A stretch of 27,363 nt of DNA from the UHGV virus genome UHGV-0044886, one strand, 5' to 3'. Positions 2,140 through 27,323 of this stretch are shown here, in pieces; positions within the stretch are counted from its first letter, which is position 1; the number at the start of each line of letters is the position of its first letter. A model generated the notes under the pieces. That model was not told the DNA's origin. It saw only the letters and a program-made list of their open reading frames with translations, and did not search any database. Position numbers and translations under genes: made by a program. This DNA comes from a virus.

Positions 2140-2156
2140 TTTGCTCTAATAAATTT
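2140..2156 (+). promoter_or_regulatory. C1-type operator (TTTGCTCTAATAAATTT) upstream of kilA-repL
   Basis: Seen directly; ~70 nt upstream of the kilA start. Confidence 0.6.
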
Positions 2157-2225
2157 CGTTTTCTAAGTGCAAAGAATCACCATTTCGAGCTGGTGATTGA
2201 AGGTTGATGCAAATTTGGAGAAAAA

Positions 2226-3026: not shown

Positions 3027-3055
3027 CAGACGTAGTAAGAACCACCAGCATTGTA

Positions 3056-3901
3056 ATGCTGGCTAAAGTCACTTTCCTGAGCTGTATAACGATGAGCGAT
3101 TTTACTTTTTCTGGCTATGAATTGGCCTGCTTTGTAACACACTCCGGTCTATCCCGTAGCGCCGGGCATATCCTGTCGCAATGTGCAAATCTAGCGGCAA
3201 CAACCAGTGAATACTTCATTCACAAGCCTCACCGCCTGATCGCGGCAGAAACTGGTTATAGCCAATCAACCGTCGTTCGTGCATTCCGTGAAGCTGTAAA
3301 CAAAGGAATCCTGTCTGTAGAGATTGTTATCGGCGATCACCGTGAACGTCGCGCTAACCTGTACCGGTTTACACCATCCTTTTTGGCCTTCGCACAACAA
3401 GCCAAAAATGCGCTGATTGAAAGCAAATTAAAGATCTCTTCAGCGGCAACCAAGGTTAAAGCTGTTCTCGCTAAGACATTGGCTTTATTTAATTTTTTAT
3501 CCACACCCCCATGTCAAAATGATACCCCCTCCCCCTGTCAGGATGACGTGGCAATAAAGAATAAGAAGTCACAAGTTAAAAAAACAAAAAGATCAGTTTC
3601 CGGCGGTGCCGGAACGAGCAGACTCAAAAAATTGACTTCATGGATCGCTGAGGCAAAAGCAAAGGCTGACAATCTGCGGTTATCCAAAAAACGCGCTCAA
3701 AAACATGAGTTCAAGCAGAAAGTAGAGGCGGCAGCGCGGAAATATGCTTACCTGAAGAACAAGCGTTCTCCTGATATTGGCGGGGTATCAAACTTCGATA
3801 ATCTGCCGCATTGCATGATGGTAAACGAAGCTCTTAATGCGGTTTTAGCCAAAAATAAAGATAACGAACAATGGGGTATACCGGCGGGATTCAGAGGGTG
3901 A
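3056..3901 (+). CDS. repL: RepL-like lytic replication initiator
   Basis: 281-aa ORF directly downstream of kilA, as in the P1 L-replicon. Basic K/R-rich C-terminal region. Start uncertain (alternative ATG at 3092). Confidence 0.6.
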   Translation: MLAKVTFLSCITMSDFTFSGYELACFVTHSGLSRSAGHILSQCANLAATTSEYFIHKPHRLIAAETGYSQSTVVRAFREAVNKGILSVEIVIGDHRERRANLYRFTPSFLAFAQQAKNALIESKLKISSAATKVKAVLAKTLALFNFLSTPPCQNDTPSPCQDDVAIKNKKSQVKKTKRSVSGGAGTSRLKKLTSWIAEAKAKADNLRLSKKRAQKHEFKQKVEAAARKYAYLKNKRSPDIGGVSNFDNLPHCMMVNEALNAVLAKNKDNEQWGIPAGFRG

Positions 3902-4177
3902 TAGATTGCTCTAATCTGGAGTCACCTGGCGTTTTCAGTATGGATTTTCTTTGGCGCGGTCTGGCCATTAGGGATCATGTTTGCTGCAACATTTCTTCTG
4001 ATGTGGATATTCACCCTTCCCGGTGATTTCTATAGAAAAAAAGCCAGACATTGATACAATCATTGCGGGTGCTTGAGGCTATCTGCTTCAGGCATTACCC
4101 GAAAAGCAGATAGAAGAAAGCCCCAGATAACATTACGCGTCCTGCAAGACGCTTAACATTAATCTGAGGCAATATCT

Positions 4178-4384
4178 ATGCTTAGCATACGTAGATTAGC
4201 CTCTTACCGACCAAAAGGTCAAGGAGAAGCAGGCTATGAAGCAGCAAAAAGCGATATTAATCGCTCTGATCGTCATCTGTTTAACCGTCATTGTGACGGC
4301 ACTGGTAACGAGGAAAGACCTCTGCGAGGTACGAATCCGAACCGGCCAGACGGAGGTCACTGTCTTCACAGCCTACGAATCTGA
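4178..4384 (+). CDS. mok-like overlapping reading frame (modulator of hok translation)
   Basis: 68-aa ORF in a different frame that overlaps almost all of the hok-like ORF, the classic mok/hok architecture. Confidence 0.45.
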   Translation: MLSIRRLASYRPKGQGEAGYEAAKSDINRSDRHLFNRHCDGTGNEERPLRGTNPNRPDGGHCLHSLRI

Positions 4385-4465: not shown

Positions 4466-4490
4466 AAAAAAGCTCCCGAAGGAGCTTTAA
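4466..4490. terminator. bidirectional intrinsic terminator (AGCTCC-CGAA-GGAGCT flanked by A and T runs)
   Basis: Perfect 6-bp stem with a tetraloop, between convergent hok (+) and the 4508..5017 gene (-). Confidence 0.6.
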
Positions 4491-4507
4491 AATACAAGGG
4501 ATGACTC

Positions 4508-5017
4508 TTAATCCCACTCAATCCAGTTGTAGACGATACGAAGTGACGGGCGCACAGCGGCAGTCACATCTTCGGTACTAAAGTCGATTGCATCACTGTA
4601 GATTTTGCAGTCCAACATTTCAATTGTTGTAGCAGCTTTTGTCACAGCGTTAACCCCGGAAGATTTGGATTCAGGGGTAGCAGCCATCGTGATATCAACA
4701 TAGTCCTTCGCCGCAATGCGATCTTTAATGAACTGAAGAATATCGCCTTCGATAGTCTCCACGCACTGGACCTGGATTTCCCCAGAGTTTCGAATTGGAC
4801 CGTGCTGGTTGAACTTCACACCATTCGGACCATAGTCCTCCACATCCTCGCGGGTCATTTCAGGAATTTGCGACGTGCGAACCAGTACGCTGATATCTTC
4901 ATGGCCTGCAAAAGTGAGCTGGAATTCAGAAGATACCAGTCGTTCGCCTTTGGCCGCGTTGGCAGTATAGCGGCCCTTAATAAATTTACGGTTTCCCTTA
5001 GTGTTATTGTGCCCCAT
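4508..5017 (-). CDS. phage tail protein, possibly tail-tube family
   Basis: 169 aa, AAGGA RBS, last gene of a minus-strand structural operon. Size and loose resemblance to contractile-tail tube proteins; not verifiable without a profile search. Confidence 0.4.
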   Translation of the reverse strand: MGHNNTKGNRKFIKGRYTANAAKGERLVSSEFQLTFAGHEDISVLVRTSQIPEMTREDVEDYGPNGVKFNQHGPIRNSGEIQVQCVETIEGDILQFIKDRIAAKDYVDITMAATPESKSSGVNAVTKAATTIEMLDCKIYSDAIDFSTEDVTAAVRPSLRIVYNWIEWD

Positions 5018-5028
5018 ATAAAATCCTT

Positions 5029-5610
5029 TTACTGGAACGCCCGAACAATATCGGAGCTGTTATATATCGAAGAACCGGTCAACTGGAGGTTGACGGTGTT
5101 TTTCAGGAAATGTCCATTGCTGTCCCTGGGCGCATCGAGATCGAAACTTATGTCCTGGATAGCGACATCAATGATGTTGATCCGGCGACCAATGTTTAGC
5201 GTCACACGCTCCGGGATTCGACCACCAATACTGGCATCTTTAAGTTCCGGGCTAATCATCGCTGACAATGCGGCGATAGCTCCTGAAACCTCCGTGAATG
5301 GGTCAAACAAAGCGATGAAAGTTACTGGCAGCGTGAAAGTCGGCGGTGTTCCCCCTTCCCAAACCATTAAGCTGTTCCAACGGGCAACCGACGTTGTTTC
5401 AGTACCAACCTGCGCAAAACCACTGAAGGCACCAGCAACAGATCCCATGGACATACCGGTAAACGGCGCTTCCCAATTCTGGGCCATGTTCATTGCCGCT
5501 CCCTGGCTGATATATCCGGTAACCTGGTACTGAGAGTTCGTTAAAGTAACTTTCAGATATGGCGATACACCGTCAGCCTGGCTGTAAACCCCATAAGGAA
5601 TAGGTGCCAT
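5029..5610 (-). CDS. phage structural/morphogenesis protein, function unknown
   Basis: 193-aa ORF in the late structural operon; start ATG 5610 is preceded by an unusual SD-hairpin-start arrangement (see findings). Confidence 0.45.
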   Translation of the reverse strand: MAPIPYGVYSQADGVSPYLKVTLTNSQYQVTGYISQGAAMNMAQNWEAPFTGMSMGSVAGAFSGFAQVGTETTSVARWNSLMVWEGGTPPTFTLPVTFIALFDPFTEVSGAIAALSAMISPELKDASIGGRIPERVTLNIGRRINIIDVAIQDISFDLDAPRDSNGHFLKNTVNLQLTGSSIYNSSDIVRAFQ

Positions 5611-5645
5611 TCAAGTTAAAGGCCGGAGTTCTCCGGCCTCCTCCT

Positions 5646-6461
5646 TTAGCCAAGGCGCTTACGGCGCAGTTTCATTGACTTTTTGCGGGCAAGTTTTGCC
5701 GCGCCGGTCTGGGCTTTTCGACGCGCTTTTTTCAGCGCCGATTTTTGAGCCGCAGTCAGACGTTTTTTACGCAGGCGTTTACGGATGAGTTTGATCTCAC
5801 CGTTACGAACAACCTTCTTAAATGCTTCAGTCAGCATTTCATCAGAAGTGCCAGCAACAACAAACGCCGCTTCCAGTTCGTCGCGGTCGTCGCTATCTAA
5901 ACCAGCGATAGAGGCACCAACATCAGCAGCTGCGTCGTCGTCTTCATCGTCAGCCAGTGCTTCGATCAGGTCATCATCTACACCGCATGCTGCGAGGAAG
6001 TCAGCAACATTTGCCCATGCTTCGTTATAGGCATCGTCCTGTTCTTCTGTAACTTCGGAGTCGTCGTCATCAGAGATACCAGCGATAGCCTGAACGAAAC
6101 CATCAAGGGAGTCGAAAGTCAGATCACCGCTATCAGCCCAGGCGAAAACGGCGTCGGCCGCATCACTCAACGCATTTTGCATAGCACTTCGATTTGCAGC
6201 TTCCAGAATCATCTGGTGCGCCTGTTCGACGGTCCATTCTTTACCGTCTTTCCCTTCCAGGATTTGCTCAGGAGCCTGGGCAGATGGAACGTTATCGTTA
6301 GTCTGTGCCGCCGGTTCCGGATTATTATTAATAACCGGATCTGTTGGCGGTTCAGCGCTTGCTCGGGCAGACTCCATCAGCTGCACAGGATCAGAGTTCA
6401 AAGCGAAACGAGACAGTCCATTCCCCAAAAATGCCCCGGATTGAAAAAAGTTTTTGCTCAT
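5646..6461 (-). CDS. phage protein with acidic core and highly basic C-terminal tail, function unknown
   Basis: 271 aa; D/E-rich central region, last ~60 aa are K/R-rich (KKVVRNGEIKLIRKRLRKKRL...RRKRLG). Confidence 0.5.
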   Translation of the reverse strand: MSKNFFQSGAFLGNGLSRFALNSDPVQLMESARASAEPPTDPVINNNPEPAAQTNDNVPSAQAPEQILEGKDGKEWTVEQAHQMILEAANRSAMQNALSDAADAVFAWADSGDLTFDSLDGFVQAIAGISDDDDSEVTEEQDDAYNEAWANVADFLAACGVDDDLIEALADDEDDDAAADVGASIAGLDSDDRDELEAAFVVAGTSDEMLTEAFKKVVRNGEIKLIRKRLRKKRLTAAQKSALKKARRKAQTGAAKLARKKSMKLRRKRLG

Positions 6462-6470
6462 TGTATTCCC

Positions 6471-8060
6471 TTACTTAATAAGCAGCGGTACGCCCTGGAT
6501 ACGACGGGCTACGCCAGTCGGGCAGCAGGCCCAGACTACTTCCCATTTATCGAATTCCGCCTGCGTAACTTTCAGCACATACGGTTCTGTACCGTCAGCA
6601 TCAGGATCACGAGGAGCCACCAGAGCGCCGGAGGCGACAAAGCGATCTAAAAGTTTGGTCATCCCTTTAGTCAGGCCAGCCGCAGTAATACCGTCCGGGC
6701 TATGCTTCATCTGTCGGGCTAACTGGACAAAGAAACGGCTGATTGCATTCATCAGGGATGGGACGTGCTGGAAGTGCAGATAGTTATCCTGCGTGCAGCA
6801 AGTTAAAGCATCGTCGATGATCATCTGGCCAGAGGTGCCAACAGATACTTTATTGAGACGGCCCTTGACCATTGCTTCTTCGTCCGGGGTATCTTCCGGA
6901 TACAGCGGTTGAATTGACGCACGAGCAATGACGGCACGTTCTTCACCAGCCGGTGAGTAATGCCAACCGCCGACATCAGAGTTTTTCTTGACGCCACGAG
7001 CTTTCGCCGCATACGCCACGCCAGACAGACCAAAGACCACACGGGATTGGGTCCATTTGTCTTTGCAGGAGAACGGGTAGTGATAGACAGCACAGCTTAC
7101 ATAATCGGTACCAAGTAAACCGGTATCTTCAACAGCAGAGATCGCTTCCGTGTACGTCAATGTCGGTTTGACATCAAAGAAGCCATCAATCAGGCGATCT
7201 GCACAGATTTTACCTAATGCGGTGATAGCCGCATTGTCATAGCAGCCCAGGCCAAGAACAGCGGTGTACATGTACGGCGCATTATTCAGCACTTTAACCG
7301 CACGCAGGTACGCAGCGGTTGAGATTTTCGACTGATCGCCGTTGGTACCGCCAGTGAACGCCAACGATTTTTTGTTTGTTACTTTCGCTGTCGAAATCAG
7401 CTCTTCATTAACAACCGCGCGCAGATATTTAGAACGGGCTTCCAGAGCCGTAGGCAGATAACACAAGCGGCCCATGTCATCTTTCGCTTCTTCCGCCAAA
7501 GACACAGTGTGTGTCTCCAGGGTCGTTACCACGCCGAGCGAAGTCGTCTGGGTCAGTTTTAAGAGGAAGCGTTCATTACCCGCGCTGTCCGCTGTTGCCG
7601 TTTCGATGGTTAACTCACGGGTAGGTGAAATACACGGATCACCATCATCAACGTAGATAGCAAAGGCTTCGCCACTATCAAGTTCAATTTCAGAACCGTA
7701 TGGCAACGCACTGTAAGCCGGTTCGCCTGATTCATCGAACATAATAATCGGGAACTTCGCATCATCCGGAACAGCGCGAACAACATAACCAGACGTTTGC
7801 TGAATAGCTTCGTATACATGGCGAATTGGTTCGAACTGTGAGCCGGAAGACGGCTTCAGCGGTTCGCCGAGAACATCTTCGTAATTGGACTCAGTAACCG
7901 CAAGAACAGTAAACGGCTTGCCACGCGCAAATACGCCAATACCAGCCCATAAGCTGCTATTTAATGCAACACCGGTAGATAACGTCGCATCGGCATTGAT
8001 CGGGCTAACCGCGACGCCGGATGCATTACCTAATGACTGTTGAATTGAATATTGAGACAT
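6471..8060 (-). CDS. large phage structural protein, possibly contractile tail sheath
   Basis: 529-aa ORF between the capsid-like gene and the tail genes; sheath call is by size and position only. Confidence 0.45.
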   Translation of the reverse strand: MSQYSIQQSLGNASGVAVSPINADATLSTGVALNSSLWAGIGVFARGKPFTVLAVTESNYEDVLGEPLKPSSGSQFEPIRHVYEAIQQTSGYVVRAVPDDAKFPIIMFDESGEPAYSALPYGSEIELDSGEAFAIYVDDGDPCISPTRELTIETATADSAGNERFLLKLTQTTSLGVVTTLETHTVSLAEEAKDDMGRLCYLPTALEARSKYLRAVVNEELISTAKVTNKKSLAFTGGTNGDQSKISTAAYLRAVKVLNNAPYMYTAVLGLGCYDNAAITALGKICADRLIDGFFDVKPTLTYTEAISAVEDTGLLGTDYVSCAVYHYPFSCKDKWTQSRVVFGLSGVAYAAKARGVKKNSDVGGWHYSPAGEERAVIARASIQPLYPEDTPDEEAMVKGRLNKVSVGTSGQMIIDDALTCCTQDNYLHFQHVPSLMNAISRFFVQLARQMKHSPDGITAAGLTKGMTKLLDRFVASGALVAPRDPDADGTEPYVLKVTQAEFDKWEVVWACCPTGVARRIQGVPLLIK

Positions 8061-8120
8061 AACTTTCCCTGTTATGCGCCCCGCACGGGGGCGCTATGTT
8101 AAACGGAGAACTACCCCTGA

Positions 8121-9848
8121 TTACTCAGAGTCACCGGCATCAATCGTGTCGCCGCTAATGAAGTTAAGCCCGCCTTTTTTGGCCATTGTCAGCGTTACAC
8201 GAGTGAAGTAATCAGCGCCGTTGCGTGGGTGCATATCGTTGATAGCCGAACCCCACAGCGTGGTACGGTTGACCAGCGCCGGAGTGGTCGGATGCTGGAA
8301 CGGGATGGCCGGGACAGCATCACCAGTCACGAAGCCTGCTTTACCCGGATTTTCATCACGGACGTAGCACAGCACATCCATCGAGCTGAACTGAATGTTC
8401 TCTGTCGTTAAGTTCTTACAAATACCAGCAGGTACTTCGTACACTTTCACGTTACCGAACAGGGTACCGATGTAGTGAACATACGGAGTCTGGATATAGT
8501 CTTCGGCTGGCTGGAAGAAATCCTTCGGCAACTGTTTGAAGAAAGATGCTGCATCAGCACCAGCAAACATCCCCATCGCACCAGAAGATTTAACGCGCTC
8601 AATAATGTCGCGATATACAGTCTGGAATTTGCCACGAATGATGGTTGCCCATACATCAAAGGACTGGTTAACCGGCAGAGCGATGTCAAAGGTGTCGGTC
8701 GCAAGAGTACGCCAGATCATGATGCGAAGACGCAGCATATCCTGTTCATGAGACAGGTATTCCTTCAGGGTGCGGAACTGTAGGGAACCCAGGTCCAGAC
8801 CAAATTCACGCTGTGCTTCATACGCCGCCTGTACCGTGTGCTCAGCCGCGATAACGAACTGGCTTGGGAACAGGGTGTATTTCTTCATTTCGTGGTTGAT
8901 CAGCGGGATCAGCTCAGGAGCGGCTTCAATATTGATTTCCGTCTCAATTGCGATCTCAGTGCCTTTATCCGGCGCTTTGGAGAACGACAGGGCAATCTGA
9001 CCAATGTTGTAGTTCAGAGAGCAGGTAACAGTGATTTGCTCACCAGCAGCATTAGTAAACGAGTGAAGTAGGCTGCCGGAACCGTTATCAACAACAGACT
9101 TAATACGGTTAACGTAGATATTAGTGCGACCTTTTCGGATTGGTACATTCTGGCCTTCGAAGTCTTCCATCTTGAAGGTTGCGGTTTTGCTGGTGCCATC
9201 GGAGCTTGCCACCAGCACATAGCGGCGGCGTAACTGGCTGTACACACCGACGGATTGCATGTCCAGAACATCACCAGCAGCATAAGAACCAAAAGAGGAA
9301 CCTGCCACGTTAAAGACTTCATAGATGTCGGACTGGTCACGCGTAACCGGAATGAAGGTACACGCATCAGCGGTAGCTGCCCCCAACTGAACAGGCAGGA
9401 TCATCGCGAGGAATAAAGGCAGACGCATAACACCGTCAGAAACGCTCATCATCTCTGCTGCGACGGATTCCAGCATCGCTTTATTAGTGGCATCCATGCT
9501 ATTGCGGGTGGACTCAATCAGGCAGTTTTCCAGCGTCTGGTGGCAGGAGGCCAGAATTTCCGGACGCGGCATAGATTTATGTGCTGCGGCGTAGTCAGCC
9601 AGTGCACTTGCCCACGCTGTAGCGATTTGAGCGGTGGCATTATCAGAGATACCCGCAAAAACCGGGTCTTTACGTGCAGCTTCAAGGATAGATGCGGCAC
9701 GCGCGGCATCATCTTTAATGAATTGGTTATCAGTACCGAACTGCGCAGTGCTTGCCCAGCCAAGCACAGCTTTAGAGCGTTTTGCGATATCTGCAATACG
9801 ATTCTGGTATTCGCGTAAGTTACTCAATTTACTCTTCCTTAAACACAA
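8121..9848 (-). CDS. large phage structural protein, possibly major capsid protein precursor (P1 gp23-like)
   Basis: 575-aa ORF from a TTG at 9848; a second TTG at 9827 with an AAGGAAGAG RBS is the more likely start (568 aa). Sits adjacent to parS as P1 gene 23 does. Confidence 0.4.
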   Translation of the reverse strand: MCLRKSKLSNLREYQNRIADIAKRSKAVLGWASTAQFGTDNQFIKDDAARAASILEAARKDPVFAGISDNATAQIATAWASALADYAAAHKSMPRPEILASCHQTLENCLIESTRNSMDATNKAMLESVAAEMMSVSDGVMRLPLFLAMILPVQLGAATADACTFIPVTRDQSDIYEVFNVAGSSFGSYAAGDVLDMQSVGVYSQLRRRYVLVASSDGTSKTATFKMEDFEGQNVPIRKGRTNIYVNRIKSVVDNGSGSLLHSFTNAAGEQITVTCSLNYNIGQIALSFSKAPDKGTEIAIETEINIEAAPELIPLINHEMKKYTLFPSQFVIAAEHTVQAAYEAQREFGLDLGSLQFRTLKEYLSHEQDMLRLRIMIWRTLATDTFDIALPVNQSFDVWATIIRGKFQTVYRDIIERVKSSGAMGMFAGADAASFFKQLPKDFFQPAEDYIQTPYVHYIGTLFGNVKVYEVPAGICKNLTTENIQFSSMDVLCYVRDENPGKAGFVTGDAVPAIPFQHPTTPALVNRTTLWGSAINDMHPRNGADYFTRVTLTMAKKGGLNFISGDTIDAGDSE

Positions 9849-9954
9849 GGCACTTGTGTGAATCCCTTTTCGGAAGAGATTTTATTGAAAGTCACTTGTT
9901 GACTTTCTCGCTAAAAGTAATTTTTTAAATTTTTTGTGCGGGGGAGGGGGGCAA

Positions 9955-10070
9955 GTAAAACAGGCGTGAAATCGTGGGAATTTCAGTCTGAAATTTTCCA
10001 TGAATATCTATATATATCATATATTTATACATGAAATAGGCGCGGGACATTTTAGACAGGGGAGGGGGCT
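9955..10070. other. parS: parS-like partition site (ParB heptamer boxes flanking an AT-rich IHF-like core)
   Basis: Immediately downstream of parB. GTGAAATCGTGGGAATTTCAG and CTGAAATTTTCC heptamer-box-like motifs (ATTTCAC/GTGAAAT family) flank the AT-rich segment CATGAATATCTATATATATCATATATTTATACATG. Confidence 0.45.
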
Positions 10071-10093
10071 AAAGCCGCCTCCCACCAGCGGGA

Positions 10094-11059
10094 TTATTCC
10101 CCAGCAGACATTTTCCCAATGATTTTTTTTATTGCTTCGTCAATTTCAGTTTGCACTTCAGACGGGAGTCTGGAGAACTCGTAGGCGACAACCCGTTTTT
10201 TCGGATCGGACTTCTTTCGGGCATATTGGCGACGGTCAGAGAAGTCTCGCAGCTTCTCAACCACCACAGATTTAACCGGCGCGGGCTTCAGGCTTTTGCT
10301 TTCCGCTTTGAAGATAGCCAGTATCTTCGCTTTATCCTCTTTCGCGCCCTCAGTCTCTGCAATTCGTTCGCGCACCGTATCAACCAGCTCTTCAATCGGC
10401 ACGCTTTTAGCGTTAGCATCCTCGGCGATCTGGAGCAGTAACTGGTAATCTGGAAGGGCGAGATCGCTGGCTACGGGGAAGACAGCAATCATCTCATCCG
10501 GCACCGCGGCAGCCTGGAAAGCTCGCGTCACTTTTGCCTTTGAGATGTTCTCAGCTCGGGCGATCTCTTCTTTGGTCATATTCTTACCGTACATAACCTC
10601 GAAGCGTTTACCCAGCTCGCGCAGAGTGTGTTCGCGGGCTGTCTGGATATCAATGGCCAGCTGGCGGGCATCCGCCAGGCTGATCTCATCTTTCGTCACC
10701 AGAATCTCAAATTTCGTTTCATTGAAGATACACGCAGCGCGGCGACGCGATCCGTCCAATACCTCAATGCGCTCCCCAACCATACGACCGATAGCCGGGA
10801 AGAACTGTTGCAATTTAATGGTGCGGGAAATATCGCTTACCGACTCAGGGGTGAGCAGAGACTGATCGCGGCCGTTAACTGCCGGGTCAACGAACGTGCG
10901 CGACTCAATCTCACCACTCAGCACGACGGTAAGCAAGAATTTAGCCTGGCGGCCAGATTTTAGGGTAAAGGTTTTGGTGCCTTCACTGCCTTCAAGCATG
11001 CGAGCAAACTCGGAGCTATTCTTGCCCAGCACTCGTCCACGGGAAACTATTTTTTTCAT
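10094..11059 (-). CDS. parB: ParB partition protein (P1/P7 family)
   Basis: 321 aa; contains the ParB-family ...ILDGSRRR... motif; start overlaps the parA stop. Confidence 0.85.
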   Translation of the reverse strand: MKKIVSRGRVLGKNSSEFARMLEGSEGTKTFTLKSGRQAKFLLTVVLSGEIESRTFVDPAVNGRDQSLLTPESVSDISRTIKLQQFFPAIGRMVGERIEVLDGSRRRAACIFNETKFEILVTKDEISLADARQLAIDIQTAREHTLRELGKRFEVMYGKNMTKEEIARAENISKAKVTRAFQAAAVPDEMIAVFPVASDLALPDYQLLLQIAEDANAKSVPIEELVDTVRERIAETEGAKEDKAKILAIFKAESKSLKPAPVKSVVVEKLRDFSDRRQYARKKSDPKKRVVAYEFSRLPSEVQTEIDEAIKKIIGKMSAGE

Positions 11060-12267
11060 GCCGCCTCACCCCTAACAAACTCAATTCGATCAAACACAGC
11101 CTTAGTGAAACGCTCGGCCTCGGTTCGTGCCTTCTTCAGCGCCTCTGCACTGCCTGGATACGATTGCGGGTTGGCACTGATTACGGTGTCGAAAGACTCG
11201 CCGCATCGCTCAAAGCCATCCAGACGAGGCAGAGAAGAGTCCAGAATGTTGCTGGCGTAAACCTCACGCGCAAGGCTGTGTGATGTCTCGTGATCGCGCT
11301 TGCCGGTCATCTTCGACATAAAACCAATGCTGGCGCTCAAACGCGGTTCTACGCCTTCCTCCTCCAGTTGCTCCAGCATTTCTGGCAGACGGGTGAGATA
11401 TTTCAGTGTTGAGTGGAAGTCAACCTGGGCTGGTGGGGTAGGGGTAAGCAGCAAATCGCTGGCCGCCAGACCGTTGAGCAGGAACGGATCCAGGTGTGGA
11501 CCGGTATCAATAAAGATAAAGTCATAATCATCCGCAACACGATCAATGATATTGCGTCGAAGGATTTCGTACTGATTTTGTCCGGGAAGATGCTCTTCAA
11601 CCAGCTCTTTCCATTGGCTGGCAACAAAGCCATCGTCGATAGAGGCTGGAATCACGTCTACGCCAGGAACGATGGTCGGACGAATCACCTCTTTGCGTAG
11701 CGTCTCCGCGTCCAGGTCGTTCAGCATCGCCTGCGCGGCGGTTTCCAGGATGGAACCAATACTGTGAGTATGGTCGAGGAACATTGTGCTGGATGCCTGA
11801 GGGTCAAGGTCAATTACCAGAATGCGCAGATCGTGACGCAGTAAATCCTGATGCACACGCAGAGCGTGCGCCAACGTGACTGTGGAAACCGTTTTGGATA
11901 CGCCACCCTTCAGGTTTACGACAAAAATAACGTAAGGCGATTTGTGAATGTCGCGATATTTGGGGATCTTACGGTGGGCATAGATATCAATGACGTTCTG
12001 GATGGTCAGCGCGTACTGTTCAACGTTACCGACCTGTTTCTTGTTGAACTGGTACCCATCATCTTCCATCTCTTTGATGGCCTGCTCCACAATACGGCGG
12101 CTCAGCTTCGGCAACTTTGCCACAGCGTTACGAGTGAACGTCTGATAATACTCGGTCTGATTGAACTCTTTGCGCTGATCTTCAATATCCTGACTCATGG
12201 CCTTAAGTAATGCGCTTGCACGAAGAGCTATGGTGCCGACACCGCCGTAATCGCGTTTCATCATCAT
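11056..12267 (-). CDS. parA: ParA partition ATPase (type Ia, long N-terminal DNA-binding extension)
   Basis: 403 aa; deviant Walker A NLKGGVSKT and Walker B-like IDTGPHLD motifs. Three consecutive ATGs at the start; the third (12261) has better SD spacing. Confidence 0.9.
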   Translation of the reverse strand: MMMKRDYGGVGTIALRASALLKAMSQDIEDQRKEFNQTEYYQTFTRNAVAKLPKLSRRIVEQAIKEMEDDGYQFNKKQVGNVEQYALTIQNVIDIYAHRKIPKYRDIHKSPYVIFVVNLKGGVSKTVSTVTLAHALRVHQDLLRHDLRILVIDLDPQASSTMFLDHTHSIGSILETAAQAMLNDLDAETLRKEVIRPTIVPGVDVIPASIDDGFVASQWKELVEEHLPGQNQYEILRRNIIDRVADDYDFIFIDTGPHLDPFLLNGLAASDLLLTPTPPAQVDFHSTLKYLTRLPEMLEQLEEEGVEPRLSASIGFMSKMTGKRDHETSHSLAREVYASNILDSSLPRLDGFERCGESFDTVISANPQSYPGSAEALKKARTEAERFTKAVFDRIEFVRGEAA

Positions 12268-12377
12268 CTCCTTATCATTTCGTATGAGTGAATTGTACGT
12301 TTGATTCTGCTACGTGCAACTTTTTTTGATTCGTGCGTCAATTATTGCACGTAAAGAAATGGCGATGTGGCTATTAG

Positions 12378-12662
12378 ATGTGTGCTGGAGGGATGATGCA
12401 GGACCAGAATGTGCGATAGAGGGAAGTCGCATTAAATTATGTGCTGTGGAGGGATCGCTGGTATCAAATATGTGTGCTGGAGGGAAAGGCAGAGAATTAC
12501 ATGTGCACTGGAGGGAAAAACGGATGGACAGATGTGTGCTGGAGGGAAAGTCTGGGCAAACTGCGGGGCGTCCCCCTCCAGCGCACATCAAAAACAGGAA
12601 ATTAGACAAGCCTTCCCGGCAGCACACATTTTTTTAATGCAGCTTCCCTCCAGCACACACTT
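12378..12662. repeat. incA-like iteron array (about nine ~19-bp RepA-binding repeats, in both orientations)
   Basis: Direct copies of GATGTGTGCTGGAGGGAAA-like repeats at ~12378, 12407 (degenerate), 12438, 12469, 12500, 12531; inverted copies (CCCTCCAGCACACAT-like) at ~12574, 12615, 12646. Sits downstream of repA. Confidence 0.8.
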
Positions 12663-13521
12663 ATTCTGGGAGTTTCAGCTTTGGATTGCGAGAATGGACG
12701 ATTACAAAACTTTCCCGGCCTTTCTTCTCAATTGAACAGTCGAGATAGCCGATTGTTTTAAGCTGTTCTATCGCTTTCTTAATGATACGGTTTTGCTCGC
12801 CAACAGCTGACTGCAAAGCCAGGCGCTCACGGATTCGGGCGAAAGATAGCGGCAACGGATTCTGCGGAAGGCTTTCGATGAAAGTGTAAATGGCTTGTGC
12901 AGCTTCTTTCTTCGGAAGGGCACGCAAGGCGTGGTGTTGCAACAGAACGCGATAATCAAGCTGGAACAGCTCCCACAGCTTCGAATCAGCCTCCAGCTCT
13001 ATCAGATCAAGGTCAGCATCAAAACGACCGACCTTTAGCAGACCAGTCTGATAGCCGCCTTTAGCATCTTTTCCGCGCTTAAAAGCGATACCCTTGTTAC
13101 GTAAGCGTCCAAGTGATTCATGAATGGTTAAACGCAGTTTCGCATCCAGACGTTTTGAGGGGAAACCACAGGCTTTAGCGAATTCCTGAAACGATAACTG
13201 GATGGTGTTTGAGGACAAGCCGTATTTGCTGAACGCGTAGATGACACCGATCCACGTTTTGAAATCAGTATCCATATCGAGTCGAGGACCGGTGATTTTA
13301 ATATCATCGTAACCCTCGGCTTTAGCTATCTCCAGCTGGGAAAATGCTTTGGTGGCATCAATCTCTTTACTTTCTCCTTTGCTCTTTGATGGCTTCGGCA
13401 CGAATACCCCCAAGCGCATCAACGCTACAGGCTGCACAGTGTTGTTTGAATTAACTGTTAGTTCTTTTGCCTTACTTTCAATGTCTGCGTAAAGAATATC
13501 GGAGATAAATGATTGATTCAT
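12661..13521 (-). CDS. repA: RepA plasmid replication initiator (iteron-binding)
   Basis: 286-aa ORF flanked upstream by five iterons plus origin and downstream by nine iterons, the P1 R-replicon layout. Confidence 0.85.
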   Translation of the reverse strand: MNQSFISDILYADIESKAKELTVNSNNTVQPVALMRLGVFVPKPSKSKGESKEIDATKAFSQLEIAKAEGYDDIKITGPRLDMDTDFKTWIGVIYAFSKYGLSSNTIQLSFQEFAKACGFPSKRLDAKLRLTIHESLGRLRNKGIAFKRGKDAKGGYQTGLLKVGRFDADLDLIELEADSKLWELFQLDYRVLLQHHALRALPKKEAAQAIYTFIESLPQNPLPLSFARIRERLALQSAVGEQNRIIKKAIEQLKTIGYLDCSIEKKGRESFVIVHSRNPKLKLPE

Positions 13522-13577
13522 ATTACTTTTTCCGAATTGTGTGGATAGTTTTTATAAGTGGTGATAACTACCCAGGC

Positions 13578-13690
13578 TTTCCCGTCAGCACACATCCTAT
13601 ATCCCGCCAGCACACATTAGCAACCCGTCAGCACACATTTTTATCCCTCCAGCACACATCGTTTTCCCTCCAGCACACATCGCGATACAC
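13578..13690. repeat. incC-like iteron array (five direct repeats) in the repA promoter/origin region
   Basis: Five copies of (T)CCC(G/T)(T/C)CAGCACACAT spaced ~21 bp apart immediately upstream of repA. Confidence 0.75.
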
Positions 13691-13699
13691 TTCTAAGCC

Positions 13700-13800
13700 A
13701 GACGTGGCGCGGCCTGCAACGATCAGGGATCTATATGGATCTAATTGGGATCTGTATGGACCTGATTATTGGATCTATCCAGTGGATAATGTGGATAAGT
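13700..13800. other. oriR-like plasmid origin core (five clustered GATC sites and DnaA boxes)
   Basis: GATC at 13721, 13728, 13738, 13749 and 13772; DnaA-box matches TGTGGATAA at 13790-13798 and GTGGATAA at ~13782. An additional TGTGGATAG sits at 13541-13549 on the repA-proximal side. Confidence 0.6.
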
Positions 13801-13802
13801 GA

Positions 13803-13827
13803 AAAACCGGCCAACGTAGCCGGTTGG
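13803..13827. terminator. bidirectional intrinsic terminator (AACCGGC-CAACGTA-GCCGGTT)
   Basis: 7-bp stem flanked by an A-run 5' and T-run on the opposite strand; ends the minus-strand operon 15953->13840. Confidence 0.5.
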
Positions 13828-13839
13828 AAGGGAGTCGTA

Positions 13840-14232
13840 TTATTCTACGCTTTCGATGAGAAGACCATGTTCATAGCATTTAAGCTCATCGCCCTCGTAC
13901 AGGAATTGGTATCCAATACCACCATATTCAGGCACATTAGGGAATAACTCATCACTTACCGAAGAACAAATCACACCAATGCAGCGATCAACGCCTTCTC
14001 GTTCTTCAGTGCTGAAAAAATCCTCTTCGGTAAGAACATGAGTACATTGCTCATCAGCATAGGTCGGAAATACATGCTCAATGCAATCCGGGTGTTTTAA
14101 ACCAAGCTGATCGGCAAGCTCGAAAGCACGACGGTATTGTTCAGATCCTGGCTTGCCAACAGTGATTTGCTCAATTTTGTAGATTGAAGTCGCTTTGTTG
14201 ATAGTTTGCTTTACTGTTACTTTATCAGACAT
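13840..14232 (-). CDS. hypothetical protein (130 aa)
   Basis: ORF with an acidic C-terminal half; last gene of the minus-strand operon. Confidence 0.5.
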   Translation of the reverse strand: MSDKVTVKQTINKATSIYKIEQITVGKPGSEQYRRAFELADQLGLKHPDCIEHVFPTYADEQCTHVLTEEDFFSTEEREGVDRCIGVICSSVSDELFPNVPEYGGIGYQFLYEGDELKCYEHGLLIESVE

Positions 14233-14243
14233 AAAAATCCCTT

Positions 14244-14495
14244 TTAGTTACCGCTAATAGCTCGGTTGTAATCATTAACGTTGCGATTCTTCCTGTTAAT
14301 CCCCATCAGCATCGTTTCTGTATCGAGGATATACGCTGGCAGATCATCAAAATATTCACTGCTAAACTCTGGCATCCTGCACATAAATGCACTTTTGGGG
14401 GCAGGGTGGTTAACCTTTGTCGGCGTCGGCGTTAAATTCGCTGATCGACTCCCGGAGCAACCGCTGAGTGTCAGCAGGAATACGCTGGCGAACAT
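14244..14495 (-). CDS. small outer-membrane lipoprotein, Rz1/o-spanin-like (possibly the P1 mlp equivalent)
   Basis: Signal peptide with lipobox LTLSGC; proline-rich mature N-terminus (TPTPTKVNHPAPK); the gene overlaps the 3' end of the upstream ORF in another frame. ORF track gives 14244..14576; the lipoprotein start at Met 14495 is preferred. Confidence 0.5.
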   Translation of the reverse strand: MFASVFLLTLSGCSGSRSANLTPTPTKVNHPAPKSAFMCRMPEFSSEYFDDLPAYILDTETMLMGINRKNRNVNDYNRAISGN

Positions 14496-14832
14496 TACCC
14501 GCCGCAACCAGTTGTTTCTGAACTTCAGCTTTTCGTTCCATTTGCCTGTCAGCATACTTGGCTTGTTCTGATTCATTTTTCACTTCCTGGCTGTGAAAAT
14601 GTTGCTCTGCTTTGTTCATCGTCTCAATGGTCTGGTTAAGATCCATTATTGACTTATCACGCTCCTTAACAGCCTGATCAAGACTGCCAATTTTCTCTAT
14701 GGCTTGCTTTAGCTGATGACGTTCCCATGCAAACCCAGCACCAACAAGTGCGCAAATCAGAACAAGAACACCAGTAGCAGCAAGTTTCTCCTTCAAAGAC
14801 AAAGCTGTTTTTAACGTAGAAAAGAATGACAT
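14410..14832 (-). CDS. membrane-anchored coiled-coil protein, Rz/i-spanin-like (possibly the P1 ppfA equivalent)
   Basis: Start at ATG 14832 with an AGGAGG RBS; one N-terminal TM helix (AATGVLVLICALVGAGFAW) followed by a charged, predicted coiled-coil periplasmic domain; the 3' end overlaps the lipoprotein gene. Confidence 0.5.
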   Translation of the reverse strand: MSFFSTLKTALSLKEKLAATGVLVLICALVGAGFAWERHQLKQAIEKIGSLDQAVKERDKSIMDLNQTIETMNKAEQHFHSQEVKNESEQAKYADRQMERKAEVQKQLVAAGNVRQRIPADTQRLLRESISEFNADADKG

Positions 14833-14871
14833 GTCTTCCTCCTGAAGAAAAATTATCAATGAAGTCCTTTG

Positions 14872-15660
14872 TTACTGTGCCGCTTTGTTTAATTCATCAA
14901 GAACAGAATCAGGAACCAAAGCGGCAACTGCGCTGGCTGTGCTGGCCTTATTTGCTGATGCTTCCGCAAGCGCGGTACCGATAGCATGGTTATAAGCAGT
15001 TATGGCTACGCTGGCGCTTTCCTTCGCTCGTTCATACTGCTGTTGCAATGCTGCTACCGGTACTGTTGTCTGGTCGAAAAAAGCACCAAATTGTTCAGTA
15101 GCTTCCTTCAGTGCTTCAACTTGTTGTTCTGTCAGTGCTGGTGGGGGAGTGACTGCGCCGCCACCTGAATCAGAGCCTGACGAGCTTCCTGAGCCTGTGT
15201 TAAGGGTCTGGTTAATGTCCTCCATAGCAGCGACTAAACTCGACGTATTAAGCGCATTTACAGCGTCCTCAAGCGATTTCGTTGTAGTCGCGTCACCAAT
15301 GGCAATAGAGATCGGCAGTTCTGAAACTTCTCGCTCATTAGCACGACAGTAAACATCCCAACCAATATCGAGTTGAAGGAGCATTGACAGATCAGCATAA
15401 CCAGCCAACAGGTCCGCGTGCTGAGTTGCCAGCCCTCCAATATTCGTTAAACCGGTTGCGGTTGTTCTGATCGTTGAAACATAGCTGGTAATAGTGTCGG
15501 GATAGACAATTGTATCCAGAATTAATCCGGTCAATTCTTCTGCAAGCAGTTTTGCTGTGTTAGCACTGTTTCGTGCCGATGTTATGGCACCAGGTGTTTT
15601 CATCCCACCGGCGGCGGCCAATTTTTTATATGCGGATAACTGGTAGTCTTTTTCCAGCAT
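14872..15660 (-). CDS. hypothetical protein (262 aa) with a Gly/Ser-rich linker, function unknown
   Basis: ATG 15660 with an AGGAG RBS 9 nt after the upstream stop; contains the low-complexity linker TGSGSSSGSDSGGGAVTPPPA. Confidence 0.55.
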   Translation of the reverse strand: MLEKDYQLSAYKKLAAAGGMKTPGAITSARNSANTAKLLAEELTGLILDTIVYPDTITSYVSTIRTTATGLTNIGGLATQHADLLAGYADLSMLLQLDIGWDVYCRANEREVSELPISIAIGDATTTKSLEDAVNALNTSSLVAAMEDINQTLNTGSGSSSGSDSGGGAVTPPPALTEQQVEALKEATEQFGAFFDQTTVPVAALQQQYERAKESASVAITAYNHAIGTALAEASANKASTASAVAALVPDSVLDELNKAAQ

Positions 15661-15668
15661 GATATCTC

Positions 15669-23850: not shown

Positions 23851-24821
23851 ACATCCTGATCATTGGGCGAAAATTTGAAGCTATCAGTGATGTGAAAACA
23901 TATACGGAAATGTGGGCTTATAACCTGGCCTGCGCCTTTAGTGAGGCAGGGGTTACATTGCAATACCATCGTCCATATTCCCCCGGCGTCGAAAGCCCGG
24001 AGGATTATGTTGAAGCTGTGTTGACTGCTGCGACCGCATGTTCTGCGAAGGCCATTTTGGCACCAGGATTGAGGTATTTTACTACGGTGCCCAGGGAAAT
24101 AGGCGTGCAACTGCGTCGTCGATTCACTGGATGGGTAGCCCAGGTATACGACGGTTCTATGCTGGATTCGGCACCAGTCGATATTACTTTTACTGTCCGC
24201 GATGATACCTGGCGGTACCTGGATAATCCAGGCAGGTTAGAGCGTCATAATCGTTTTAACAAACATGTTGGATGGGCAGCGAATCAGGAGCTGTTCCATC
24301 TGGAAACCAAAACAGACGATGTTCTGCGTATTTTTGTAGACCATGCGGCATTTGATGTTAGTGGTTTTGATCACTCCTTAAGTATCCTTATGAACCTTCA
24401 GCGCCTGGCCGTTCCGTATGAGGCCATAACGTTGACCGATGACGGATTGGTTACCATTGATCCGGGGAATATTTCGGTAACTCCATACAGACGGACGCCG
24501 GTACCAGCAACCGAATTTGCAGCTGAATTGCGTAAGAGTGACGTTTTTATCGTTACGCATCCCGAAAGCCTTGGATTAACTGTTCTTGAGGCGGCAATGT
24601 GTGGGGCGTTGATATTAACGCCGCCAGATTGCCTTCCGCCAGATCGCCTGGCTTTGGTGAACCATATGGTTATCAAGTCGCGGATTGATTGGGATGAGGT
24701 TATTGCTCGCGTTGATCGCGTGAAAAATGCTGAAAAGGTCCAGTGTCACACCTGGTCGGCAATTGCGGAAAAGATGCTTGAGACGTTTATCACGCAGAAA
24801 CCGTCGCGCGGTAACGGATAA
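23847..24821 (+). CDS. glycosyltransferase-like protein (GT-B fold, GT4-like C-terminal motif)
   Basis: 324 aa; N-terminal MNILIIGRKF Rossmann-like start; C-terminal ...VTHPESLGLTVLEAAMCGALILTPPD resembles the GT4 E-x7-E donor-binding motif (EGFGLPVLEAMACGTPVI type). ATG overlaps the dbn stop (ATGA). Confidence 0.45.
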   Translation: MNILIIGRKFEAISDVKTYTEMWAYNLACAFSEAGVTLQYHRPYSPGVESPEDYVEAVLTAATACSAKAILAPGLRYFTTVPREIGVQLRRRFTGWVAQVYDGSMLDSAPVDITFTVRDDTWRYLDNPGRLERHNRFNKHVGWAANQELFHLETKTDDVLRIFVDHAAFDVSGFDHSLSILMNLQRLAVPYEAITLTDDGLVTIDPGNISVTPYRRTPVPATEFAAELRKSDVFIVTHPESLGLTVLEAAMCGALILTPPDCLPPDRLALVNHMVIKSRIDWDEVIARVDRVKNAEKVQCHTWSAIAEKMLETFITQKPSRGNG

Positions 24822-24842
24822 AAAATTGAACCCGTCATAACA

Positions 24843-24866
24843 GAAAAGCCCGAACGCCGGGCTTTT
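24843..24866. terminator. bidirectional intrinsic terminator (GCCCG-AACGC-CGGGC flanked by AAAA/TTTT)
   Basis: Between the convergent GT-like gene (+) and the spike gene (-). Confidence 0.55.
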
Positions 24867-24867
24867 C

Positions 24868-27323
<2,456 letters not shown>

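Follow-up and report, generated by a model that had tools for sequence, protein, structure and literature searches.

The prototype of the overlapped two-component spanins is the LysB/LysC pair of phage P2 (141 + 96 aa), which ends the classical lysis cassette Y-K-lysA-lysB-lysC. The genes ppfA and mlp of phage P1 (140 + 87–110 aa) resemble it in their +1 overlap and in that the o-spanin gene extends past the i-spanin stop codon, but they follow tail spike-tip genes and are unlinked to two other lysis loci. In phage lambda, Rz has a type II topology in the inner membrane and a hinge between two helical segments in the periplasm, all of which is predicted for PpfA as well, and Rz1 is, like the predicted Mlp, a Pro-rich outer-membrane lipoprotein from the +1 frame whose periplasmic Cys could form a homodimer disulfide; both pairs would be expected to act by fusing the membranes once the murein has been broken down. 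Rz1, however, is fully embedded in Rz and has a mature length of 40 aa, whereas Mlp is of the overlapped kind, with 71 mature residues and a C-terminal helix predicted at low confidence, and Rz has two periplasmic Cys where PpfA has none. PseT.3/PseT.2 of phage T4 are reminiscent of the P1 pair in that the i-spanin lacks periplasmic Cys, the cysteine(s) residing in the o-spanin, and in that PseT.2 is bigger than Rz1 and has a predicted C-terminal helix (PMC6139136); they differ in being separated genes without overlap and in the need of PseT.2 for two Cys. Finally, the unimolecular spanin gp11 of phage T1 does the same final job as proposed here for the P1 pair, outer-membrane disruption, but as one polypeptide that carries a lipobox and, at its C-terminus, a transmembrane (TM) domain, without coiled coil and without periplasmic Cys (PMC6139136).

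A spanin role of ppfA/mlp has been predicted before. According to Bednarek 2022 (PMC9025707), Summer 2007 predicted the P1 pair as an overlapped spanin, and Table S1 of Kongari 2018 catalogues P1 gp064/gp063 as an overlapped i-/o-spanin pair (Mlp being listed as OOS), with the predicted P1 spanins placed in families of their own. RefSeq NC_005856 names mlp 'Rz-like spanin'. The original GenBank records and the PGAP annotation of E. coli plasmids, by contrast, call ppfA a 'hypothetical protein' or simply 'ppfA' and name no spanin, and PGAP often leaves mlp, and also upfC, uncalled. The suggestion of the initial annotation that a spanin role is under-annotated thus holds for GenBank and PGAP records, but neither for the specialist literature since 2007 nor for the RefSeq name of mlp. 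What the present analysis adds is evidence on the start codon of mlp, the unit formed with upfC/upfB, and the omission of mlp by PGAP.

Results

Locus and gene neighbourhood

The window, i.e. the entire 27,363-nt stretch of UHGV virus genome UHGV-0044886 analysed here, is a P1-like phage-plasmid and shares 99.8% DNA identity with P1 at the ppfA/mlp locus. Its PpfA is 100% identical to that of P1 (tblastn); the window as a whole is not colinear with P1 (blastn). The initial annotation had raised the possibility that the pair corresponds to P1 ppfA/mlp and had described it as lying away from any visible lysis cassette, and was correct in both respects. In the P1 record, lyz-lydD-lydE map to 20.0–20.9 kb and lydC-lydA-lydB to 30.4–31.5 kb; neither region falls within the window, and these lysis genes are ~33 and ~43 kb from ppfA/mlp, whose neighbours are upfC, upfB, upfA and repA (Table 1). 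In none of the relatives examined does an endolysin or holin gene adjoin the pair, which borders the plasmid replicon. Hence, ppfA/mlp do not occupy the usual place of spanin genes, the end of a holin-endolysin cassette. That place is typical rather than defining: in the spanin surveys, pairs are picked by membrane signals and gene arrangement, and the unlinked P1 pair is included (Kongari 2018; PMC9025707).

Table 1. Features of the ppfA/mlp locus, in window coordinates.
Feature	Position	Strand	Description
Weak candidate promoter AAATAACCT-N4-TAAAAT	15986..16004	-	33 nt upstream of upfC; two mismatches to the P1 late-promoter pattern
upfC	15669..15953	-	Opens the unit; spike-tip protein of PAAR type; cryo-EM (PMC12810830)
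upfB	14872..15717	-	Directly upstream of ppfA, same strand; baseplate 'tripod' protein; P1 annotation, cryo-EM (PMC12810830)
Shine-Dalgarno AGGAGG of ppfA	14838..14843	-	5 nt upstream of ATG; read from the sequence; same site in Kongari Table S1
ppfA	14410..14832	-	Predicted i-spanin, 140 aa; ATG 14832 to stop 14410; ORF and translation
Transmembrane segment LAATGVLVLICALVGAGFAW	14725..14784	-	ppfA codons 17–36; sole TM segment
SD-like AGGAAG of mlp	14583..14588	-	6 nt before annotated ATG 14576; formed by invariant PpfA codons Q82-E83
mlp	14244..14576	-	Predicted o-spanin lipoprotein, +1 frame of ppfA; 110 aa from annotated ATG; ORF and P1 annotation
Two-frame overlap zone of ppfA/mlp	14410..14576	-	167 nt at most (ATG 14576)
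Alternative mlp start TTG	14505..14507	-	16 codons before lipobox Cys; would give signal peptide MRRVMFASVFLLTLSG-C
Lipobox L37-S38-G39-C40	14457..14468	-	Regex match; 110-aa numbering
upfA	13840..14232	-	11 nt downstream of mlp; P1 annotation; phrog_1453, a family of unknown function
Terminator-like hairpin with T-run	13805..13825	-	Directly after upfA, before oriR; 9-bp stem, 5 GC pairs

The pair shares a compact same-strand unit with the baseplate spike-tip genes upfC and upfB. UpfC matches the Pfam family PAAR_motif (1.1e-5) and the NCBIfam family T6SS_PAAR_dom (4e-9), and cryo-EM has placed both UpfC and UpfB in the virion, where they are proposed to form a membrane-piercing device (PMC12810830). 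Because upfC and upfB code for components of the virion, their unit has to be expressed during lytic growth. The third neighbour, upfA, is variable or missing in relatives (absent, for example, in lineages L007/L008), and the hairpin that follows it, found in a promoter/terminator scan, is the probable end of an upfC-upfB-ppfA-mlp-upfA unit. Elsewhere in the window, plp/upl was considered as a second spanin-like pair and rejected, upl having no TM segment and plp being interrupted.

How might this unit be transcribed? The promoters predicted for the locus in the P1 record, P1ppfA and P2ppfA, are both of the sigma-70 type and were not recovered by an independent consensus scan; no Lpa-type late promoter is annotated upstream of the unit. 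From the annotated LPlyz and LPdar we derived the late-promoter pattern AAGTNACTT-N4-TANNNT, which has a perfect match at window positions 9879–9897, corresponding to the annotated LP23 (blastn). Upstream of upfC, the pattern returned only the weak candidate of Table 1, with two mismatches, and such matches are no more numerous in the window than chance would give. Four diverged lineages retain a TANNAT -10 element at the corresponding position.

PpfA, the predicted i-spanin

The 140-aa frame and its one N-terminal TM helix, both described in the initial annotation, were confirmed by ORF analysis and by a Kyte-Doolittle profile, in which residues 17–35 form a single hydrophobic segment (19-residue maximum 2.35) and no other window exceeds 2. 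By analogy with lambda Rz, an N-in orientation (type II topology) would be expected. The protein would consist of a short cytoplasmic N-terminus, the TM helix, a long periplasmic helix, a Gly/Pro hinge (residues 111–119) and a C-terminal helix, the last of these being conserved. The AlphaFold2 model agrees (helix 13–110 with the TM segment inside it, break at 111–119, helix 120–137; pLDDT 69). The periplasmic part lacks Cys, and residues 37–140 comprise 36% D/E/K/R. Of the 'charged coiled-coil' domain proposed earlier, charge and helicity stand, but heptad periodicity is strong for residues 37–75 only (reached by 0/2000 shuffles) and weak for 76–110.

Overlap, selection and conservation

The frame of mlp is open from 14576 to 14244 and runs 166 nt past the ppfA stop, placing the pair in the overlapped class. 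The overlapped Rz/Rz1 architecture noted earlier was borne out, in the +1 frame and with an extent of 86–167 nt depending on the start codon of mlp (98 nt from TTG 14507, 86 nt from ATG 14495). Related phages share it, the overlapped lipoprotein ORF being kept in nine P1-like lineages. Between lineages, the part of mlp beyond the overlap has a dN/dS of 0.05–0.10, compared with pN/pS values of 1.4–3.0 when this DNA is read in its two other frames, and ppfA has a dN/dS of 0.08–0.23; as judged from these ratios, purifying selection on both genes is strong. Inside the overlap zone, the lineages reach a nucleotide identity of 0.82–0.88, up from 0.71, a suppression of synonymous change that shows, at the level of these alignments, dual coding. 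A chance overlap of reading frames is ruled out by dN/dS and conservation.

Synteny of upfC-upfB-ppfA-mlp, together with the architecture of the pair, is conserved in the nine lineages down to 31% PpfA identity, and ppfA/mlp rank with the best-conserved genes of P1-like phage-plasmids. Among complete E. coli genomes, 645 of 5426 (~12%) carry the pair, in nearly all cases on P1-like phage-plasmids. Only P1-like relatives came up in word-indexed protein searches and in tblastn against phages. When 1.84 billion representatives were searched exhaustively with HMMER, just 33 matches were obtained, mostly fragments or unrelated coiled coils, so that the PpfA family proper is narrow. Among the most distant full-length relatives, the one that could be placed, P0078, lies in a locus (L092) with the same P1-like synteny; the genomic contexts of two others (P0083, P0093) were not located in viral, genome and metagenome scans. 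Given this single placement, 'guilt by association' with an endolysin is shown only via P2 LysC.

Mlp, the predicted o-spanin, and its start codon

In Mlp, the lipobox Cys, after which 71 mature residues follow (from Cys40), is invariant across an alignment of relatives and P2 LysC, and the LSG-C motif with the subsequent Ser is conserved in all relatives. With Ser and not Asp at the +2 position, sorting to the outer membrane is expected. Five Pro among the first 31 mature residues make up a Pro-rich linker, and the C-terminal half is highly conserved. A second Cys, residue 66 within a CRMP sequence (CxMP motif), is likewise invariant in the relatives and in LysC, and could link two Mlp molecules through a disulfide. 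For Mlp, AlphaFold2 gave a low-confidence model (pLDDT 58), from which only the predicted C-terminal helix was used.

Where does translation of mlp begin? Table S1 of Kongari 2018 gives LipoP cleavage after residue 39 and remarks on the 110-aa form 'no hit by Prosite' and 'too long signal sequence'. In nine of nine lineages, AGGAGG or AGGAAG precedes an ATG 38 or 39 codons before the lipobox Cys, in P1 the annotated ATG 14576. A start codon at exactly -16 from this Cys is present in eight of nine lineages (ATG in six, TTG in two), while PpfA residue 109, which overlaps it, varies (V/H/D). In addition, Met1 of LysC aligns at TTG 14507, and this is also where the dual-coding constraint starts. 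The initial annotation had the lipoprotein run from 14495 to 14244; its lipobox and Pro-rich stretch hold, but 14495 is the least supported start. This codon (Met28) is ATG in P1 only, relatives having F or L, and the resulting signal peptide would have no charged n-region, whereas ATG 14576 and TTG 14507 are each conserved. Accordingly, mlp may start at ATG 14576, at TTG 14507, or at both.

We tentatively raise the possibility, on balance rather an unlikely one, of a conserved dual start, with an SD-driven ATG at -38/-39 and a second start codon at -16. If true, a highly basic leader of 39 residues and a canonical one of 16 would give two precursors of one mature lipoprotein; these could differ in export rate and so allow the stoichiometry or timing of the spanin to be set at the level of translation. 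We found no mention of a dual-start motif in spanins.

Homology to known spanin families

Mlp is a detectable homologue, by sequence, of the P2 o-spanin LysC. The two align colinearly from the signal peptide through the conserved Cys (BLASTP 1e-7, 37% identity over 68 aa), with the lipobox Cys, a Pro-rich stretch, a K, the C-x-M-P motif and a D-L motif in common. Mlp matches two PHROGs annotated 'Rz-like spanin', phrog_30284 and phrog_456, the latter (2.7e-5) being the family of LysC; conversely, LysC matches phrog_30284, Mlp's own family, at 5e-4. Among curated NCBIfam models, NF038368 (P2_Rz1) was the top match for Mlp of P1 (14.7 bits, E=0.026) and its homologues in L092 (19.2 bits, E=0.001) and L007 (14.4 bits), with none of the three reaching the equivalog cut-off of 27 bits; it is the sole match for the L092 homologue, whereas L007 has a second, weaker one.

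For PpfA, the profile phrog_89 ('Rz-like spanin') was matched at 5e-25, as it was by the relatives P0053 (3e-14) and P0078 (1.6e-7) and by LysB (5.8e-61), scores that coiled-coil composition inflates, since low-complexity coiled coils attract spurious profile matches; P1 PpfA may moreover be a member of phrog_89 or have been used in its build. TIGR03495 (phage_LysB) was the top match for PpfA, P0053 and P0078 at 18–23 bits (PpfA 18), far from its cut-off of 92.75 bits; both P1 proteins thus fall below the curated cut-offs of the P2 equivalogs. Although both match phrog_89, PpfA and LysB show no significant pairwise similarity (BLASTP E=58; hhalign probability with the PpfA alignment 1.25%). 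Nor did PpfA match lambda Rz significantly (BLASTP E=0.27), and neither P1 protein matched phrog_13 or phrog_3198, the families of Rz and Rz1; the lambda and P1 pairs fall into different PHROGs and have no sequence similarity. No Pfam family reached threshold for PpfA or Mlp, and PDB sequence searches returned nothing relevant. The label 'endopeptidase Rz' in some P1-like records is a functional one and not evidence of homology.

Discussion

What is the role of ppfA/mlp? We consider it very probable that they encode the two-subunit spanin of P1-like phages, an overlapped pair on a distant branch of the P2 LysB/LysC type. An N-terminal TM segment, a helical periplasmic domain, a lipobox, adjacent overlapped genes and, in Mlp, a periplasmic Cys are all present in the sequence, and together with the homology of Mlp to LysC they support the spanin reading of the initial annotation.

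By analogy with the lambda Rz/Rz1 model, PpfA would be anchored N-in in the inner membrane, and Mlp would be lipidated, Lol-sorted to the inner leaflet of the outer membrane and dimerized through Cys66. The periplasmic C-terminal parts of the two proteins would bind one another, and the complexes, threading the murein meshwork, would accumulate without harm. Upon triggering by the holins LydA/LydD and degradation of the murein by the SAR-endolysin Lyz, the freed complexes might cluster and collapse, so that the two membranes fuse and nothing further holds back the release of phage.

A published CRISPRi study scored both genes as non-essential for plaques, with EOP values of 0.24/0.19 upon knock-down of mlp and 1.3/1.2 for ppfA. 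The plates contained 5 mM Ca2+ and 5 mM Mg2+, and lambda Rz was scored essential in the same study. The non-essential score neither proves nor excludes an outer-membrane-disruption phenotype. As an observation in its own right, the predicted spanin of P1 is encoded together with spike-tip genes, and P1 seems able to form plaques without it.

These data bear on a variant of the spanin reading, namely that the pair is a true spanin, yet a redundant one or one needed only in certain hosts or conditions, and that the P1 outer membrane is broken mainly by another factor. The knock-down result, obtained despite divalent cations in the top agar and unlike that for lambda Rz, speaks in its favour, as does the precedent of the P1 holins, which are already redundant and differ in importance by condition. 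Yet knock-down may be incomplete, given that lambda R, an essential endolysin, was scored NE in the same study, and strong purifying selection on both genes and their near-universal retention count against this reading; also, no second pair of lipoprotein and TM genes was seen in the window. We therefore regard redundancy as clearly unlikely, albeit the least improbable of the alternatives.

Lipoproteins such as lambda Bor, T5 Llp and phi80 Cor offer a model for another reading, in which the pair are envelope proteins with a non-lytic prophage role (superinfection exclusion or host envelope modification), expressed from sigma-70 promoters in the lysogen. The locus adjoins repA/oriR, the only promoters predicted in the P1 record are of the sigma-70 type, plaque formation is unaffected by knock-down, and the pair is highly conserved in P1-like phage-plasmids and present in those 645 complete E. 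coli genomes. An exclusion lipoprotein, however, needs no +1-overlapping TM/coiled-coil partner, let alone one whose arrangement is conserved to 31% identity; Mlp is homologous to a component of the P2 lysis cassette, the co-oriented upstream genes encode virion parts, and the sigma-70 promoters escaped our scan, all of which renders this reading very unlikely. Even less probable is that the pair acts at infection with UpfC/UpfB, for instance as an aid to assembly of the membrane-piercing apparatus or to its crossing of the periplasm. Although the tight same-strand upfC-upfB-ppfA-mlp unit recurs in all relatives and a piercing function is proposed for its first two products (PMC12810830), PpfA and Mlp go unmentioned in the cryo-EM work, in which nearly every protein of the virion was assigned (PMC12810830), both carry signals that target the envelope of the producing cell itself, and homology points to LysB/LysC.

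Thousands of records would benefit from curated i-spanin and o-spanin names for ppfA and mlp and from a corrected start of mlp. The lysis system of P1, a workhorse phage, is unusually dispersed and redundant, and a spanin role of ppfA/mlp would complete its parts list.

The ppfA/mlp locus in a mosaic phage-plasmid

The initial annotation described an overlapping, spanin-like gene pair that might correspond to ppfA/mlp of phage P1. These are indeed the two genes: the surrounding 851 bases are 99.8% identical to P1 (NC_005856 63210-64060), matching the features ppfA and mlp, and 99.5% identical to P7. The 589-base locus has a 100% match in the E. coli plasmid NZ_CP069885. Of 5426 complete E. coli genomes, 645 carry the locus, and plasmids account for 644 of its 661 places. 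The window as a whole differs from reference P1: blastn returns four colinear blocks of 97.5-99.3% identity with replaced segments between them, and no single fixed offset to NC_005856, the offset being 49110 throughout the block that holds ppfA/mlp. P7-type sequence makes up the parS-parB-parA region (about 9950-12400; 98.8% identity to P7, 100% to OP279344). Judged by sequence, the window is a mosaic P1/P7-like phage-plasmid.

Further departures from NC_005856 were seen. The short segment 3915-4466, which takes the place of the P1 rlfA-rlfB-pmgF region, holds a full-length sok antitoxin RNA at 4067-4241 (+) (Rfam RF01794, 114 bits), suggesting a hok/sok-type addiction module that is absent from reference P1 at that place. 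The dmt gene, one 754-aa CDS in P1, appears as two ORFs in different frames, which could be due to a frameshift, to sequencing error or to a genuine arrangement as two genes. Between ban and dbn, ~275 extra bases (23548-23850, +) carry a 100-aa ORF overlapping the end of ban and the start of dbn.

Coordinates of features in the window
Feature	Position	Strand	Remarks
Colinear P1 block	1442-3915		blastn
Colinear P1 block	4466-9997		blastn
Colinear P1 block	12374-23558		blastn
Colinear P1 block	23847-27309		blastn
Terminator-like hairpin	13825-13805	-	closes upfC-upfB-ppfA-mlp-upfA unit, just before oriR
mlp open frame	14576 to 14244	-	+1 frame of ppfA
ppfA	ATG 14832 to stop 14410	-	140 aa; AGGAGG 5 nt before ATG
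dmt (DNA methyltransferase gene), part	17302-19092	+	596-aa ORF
dmt, part	19113-19565	+	150-aa ORF
plp, 'putative lipoprotein' gene	20494-20739	-	125 aa in P1 record, 81 aa in window by stop codon

Coding evidence and predicted products

Is the overlap under selection in both frames? For comparison we took P1-like elements that have diverged to about 60% PpfA identity: Cronobacter phage JK004 and contigs of Salmonella and Klebsiella. Where mlp extends beyond ppfA, synonymous sites are saturated and dN/dS is 0.05-0.10, while the other two frames of this mlp-only DNA give pN/pS of 1.4-3.0; the non-overlapped part of ppfA has a dN/dS of 0.08-0.23. Inside the overlap, the ppfA-frame synonymous difference fraction drops from 0.48 to 0.30 to 0.20 as nucleotide identity climbs from 0.71 to 0.82 to 0.88, a hallmark of two coding constraints acting on one stretch of DNA. 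Nine lineages keep the overlapped lipoprotein frame, among them a 94-kb IMG/VR contig (L092) at just 31% PpfA identity, which answers the earlier question of whether related phages share the overlap.

PpfA has a single hydrophobic segment (residues 17-35, Kyte-Doolittle 2.35), in agreement with the transmembrane helix first proposed, followed by a 104-residue periplasmic part that is 36% charged. The proposed coiled coil held up in part: 3.5-residue hydrophobic periodicity is very strong over residues 37-75 (0 of 2000 shuffles reach it) and weak over 76-110, so that a coiled coil is well founded in the membrane-proximal half, as predicted from sequence, and plausible in the rest. An AlphaFold2 model (17 homologues as input, mean pLDDT 69) shows two helices, at 13-110 and 120-137, with residues 111-119 (AAGNVRQRI-P) as the break between them. 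Extension of ppfA to TTG 14859, as in a mechanical ORF list, was rejected as without support.

Mlp carries an L-S-G-C lipobox with Cys40 (numbering of the 110-aa form) and Ser at +2, and a second Cys lies at residue 66. Five Pro occur early in the mature protein, within its first 31 residues. The lipobox and proline-rich N-terminus thus stand as initially annotated; the start assigned there, ATG 14495 (Met28), does not, being an ATG in P1 only, with Phe or Leu in relatives, and giving a leader without a basic n-region. Two other start codons are each conserved. The annotated ATG 14576, or an equivalent one codon off, occurs in 9 of 9 lineages, with AGGAGG (AGGAAG in P1) 6-9 nt upstream, made of the invariant PpfA codons Q82-E83. 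The other lies exactly 16 codons before the Cys, as TTG 14507 in P1 and L092 and as ATG in six others, and is absent from JK004 only; PpfA residue 109 varies between Val, His and Asp, always with the codons GTT, CAT or GAT, each of which preserves this +1-frame start. The dual-coding constraint begins at this position, Met1 of P2 LysC aligns with it, and initiation there gives a textbook 16-residue leader (MRRVMFASVFLLTLSG, directly followed by C), whereas the 110-aa form was marked 'too long signal sequence' by Kongari et al. (PMC6139136). Translation may begin at either site or at both; the mature lipoprotein is identical in all cases.

Relationship to known spanins

Mlp is clearly related to P2 LysC (37% identity over 68 residues, E=1e-7), in an alignment colinear through leader, lipobox, Pro-rich stretch, Lys, C-x-M-P motif and D-L motif. 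It matches the PHROG of LysC (phrog_456) at 2.7e-5 and, reciprocally, LysC matches that of Mlp. Among NCBIfam models, the LysC model NF038368 ranks first for Mlp and two diverged homologues and is the sole match for two of the three, at E values of 0.001 to 0.03, below the 27-bit cut-off. For PpfA, no pairwise similarity to P2 LysB or lambda Rz was found. The LysB family phrog_89 matches PpfA (5e-25) and its diverged relatives P0053 (3e-14) and P0078 (1.6e-7), the latter encoded on L092, and all three have TIGR03495 (phage_LysB) as their top NCBIfam match, scoring 18-23 bits where the cut-off is 92.75. Pfam gave no match for either protein. The PpfA family proper is small: HMMER, run exhaustively on 1.84 billion representative proteins, returned only 33 matches. 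These comparisons firmly place Mlp as a distant branch of P2-type overlapped o-spanins, and PpfA is probably a distant branch of the corresponding i-spanins.

Genomic context and expression

The two genes are the third and fourth of a compact same-strand unit, upfC-upfB-ppfA-mlp-upfA, whose order from upfC to mlp is identical in all relatives examined. As first noted, they lie away from the lysis cassette: the remaining P1 lysis genes occupy two distant loci, lyz-lydD-lydE and lydC-lydA-lydB. Cryo-EM places UpfC (PAAR) and UpfB at the P1 baseplate spike tip (PMC12810830); since these are virion parts, the unit must be expressed in lytic growth. The upfA gene is absent in Klebsiella-type relatives, which have ~550 bases without a called gene (L007 3423-3978, L008 2596-3151), and a Phage_gp49_66 family protein takes its position in others; upfA thus does not always accompany the pair. 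Elsewhere in the window, the plp product is Cys-rich and not convincing as a lipoprotein, and upl, upstream of it, lacks a transmembrane segment; plp/upl was rejected as a second spanin pair.

No Lpa-dependent late promoter is annotated upstream of ppfA/mlp, the P1 record holding only two predicted sigma-70 promoters, inside upfB. A search with a pattern derived from annotated P1 late promoters gave, upstream of the unit, a single match with two mismatches, 33 nt before upfC and not above chance. The sole zero-mismatch match in the window, at 9879-9897 (-) (AAGTGACTT-TCAA-TAAAAT), corresponds to LP23 of the P1 record, which precedes the major capsid gene and lies at the parS edge. At the place of the two-mismatch match, about 35 nt before upfC, four diverged lineages keep a TANNAT -10 element beside a conserved C1 operator. 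This operator, Op68/Odmt (AAATTTATTAGAGCAAT-like), lies between the divergent dmt and upfC units (about 15986-16051, -); both elements are kept in the intergenic regions of four lineages (L005-L008) whose identity is otherwise only about 60-70%. C1 might also control the upfC-upfB-ppfA-mlp unit.

Prior predictions and likely function

A spanin role for the pair is already known, as a prediction. A passage in Bednarek et al. (PMC9025707), referring to 2007 work, gives ppfA/mlp as the P1 spanin genes; it calls ppfA the o-spanin and mlp the i-spanin, the opposite of the sequences and of Table S1 of Kongari et al. 2018 (PMC6139136), where gp064 is the overlapped i-spanin and gp063 the overlapped o-spanin, with a LipoP site after residue 39 and a single periplasmic Cys in the o-spanin, the i-spanin having none. 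The original GenBank note on mlp reads 'possibly involved in regulation of lysis (by homology)', RefSeq names it 'Rz-like spanin', and Rz/Rz1 names occur in several P1-like phage records. The suspicion of under-annotation thus fails for the literature and RefSeq but applies to PGAP records, which label ppfA 'hypothetical protein' or 'ppfA': on the 100%-identical plasmid (NZ_CP069885.1 28425-33013), ppfA and upfB are both 'hypothetical protein', and mlp and the PAAR gene upfC are missing from the annotation. In other assemblies, what gene callers report of mlp is limited to fragments of 44-52 aa. The new details are confined to the two conserved candidate start codons of mlp, the co-location with spike-tip genes and the clear LysC homology of Mlp.

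Our literature search found no later experimental test of P1 ppfA/mlp. In a genome-wide CRISPRi screen for plaque formation, both genes scored non-essential (EOP 0.24/0.19 for mlp, 1.3/1.2 for ppfA), with top agar containing 5 mM Ca2+ and 5 mM Mg2+; that study scored lambda Rz as essential. The pair could be a real spanin that is needed only conditionally, an improbable reading that partly coincides with the main explanation, since the molecular function is unchanged and redundancy is added. We consider a non-lytic envelope role in the lysogen unlikely, and a role with the spike tip at infection, next to whose genes the pair lies, very unlikely.

The lambda Rz/Rz1 model is the most likely mechanism, and we regard it as highly probable by analogy: the overlapped pair first noted is confirmed, and its spanin interpretation is supported by sequence features and the Mlp-LysC homology, from which we infer topology, lipidation, complex formation and lysis phenotype. 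PpfA would be anchored in the inner membrane, and Mlp would be lipidated, transferred to the outer membrane and dimerized via Cys66. The two would bind via their periplasmic C-terminal parts, and complexes would build up, passing through the murein; after holin triggering and murein removal by the SAR-endolysin Lyz, these complexes would fuse both membranes.
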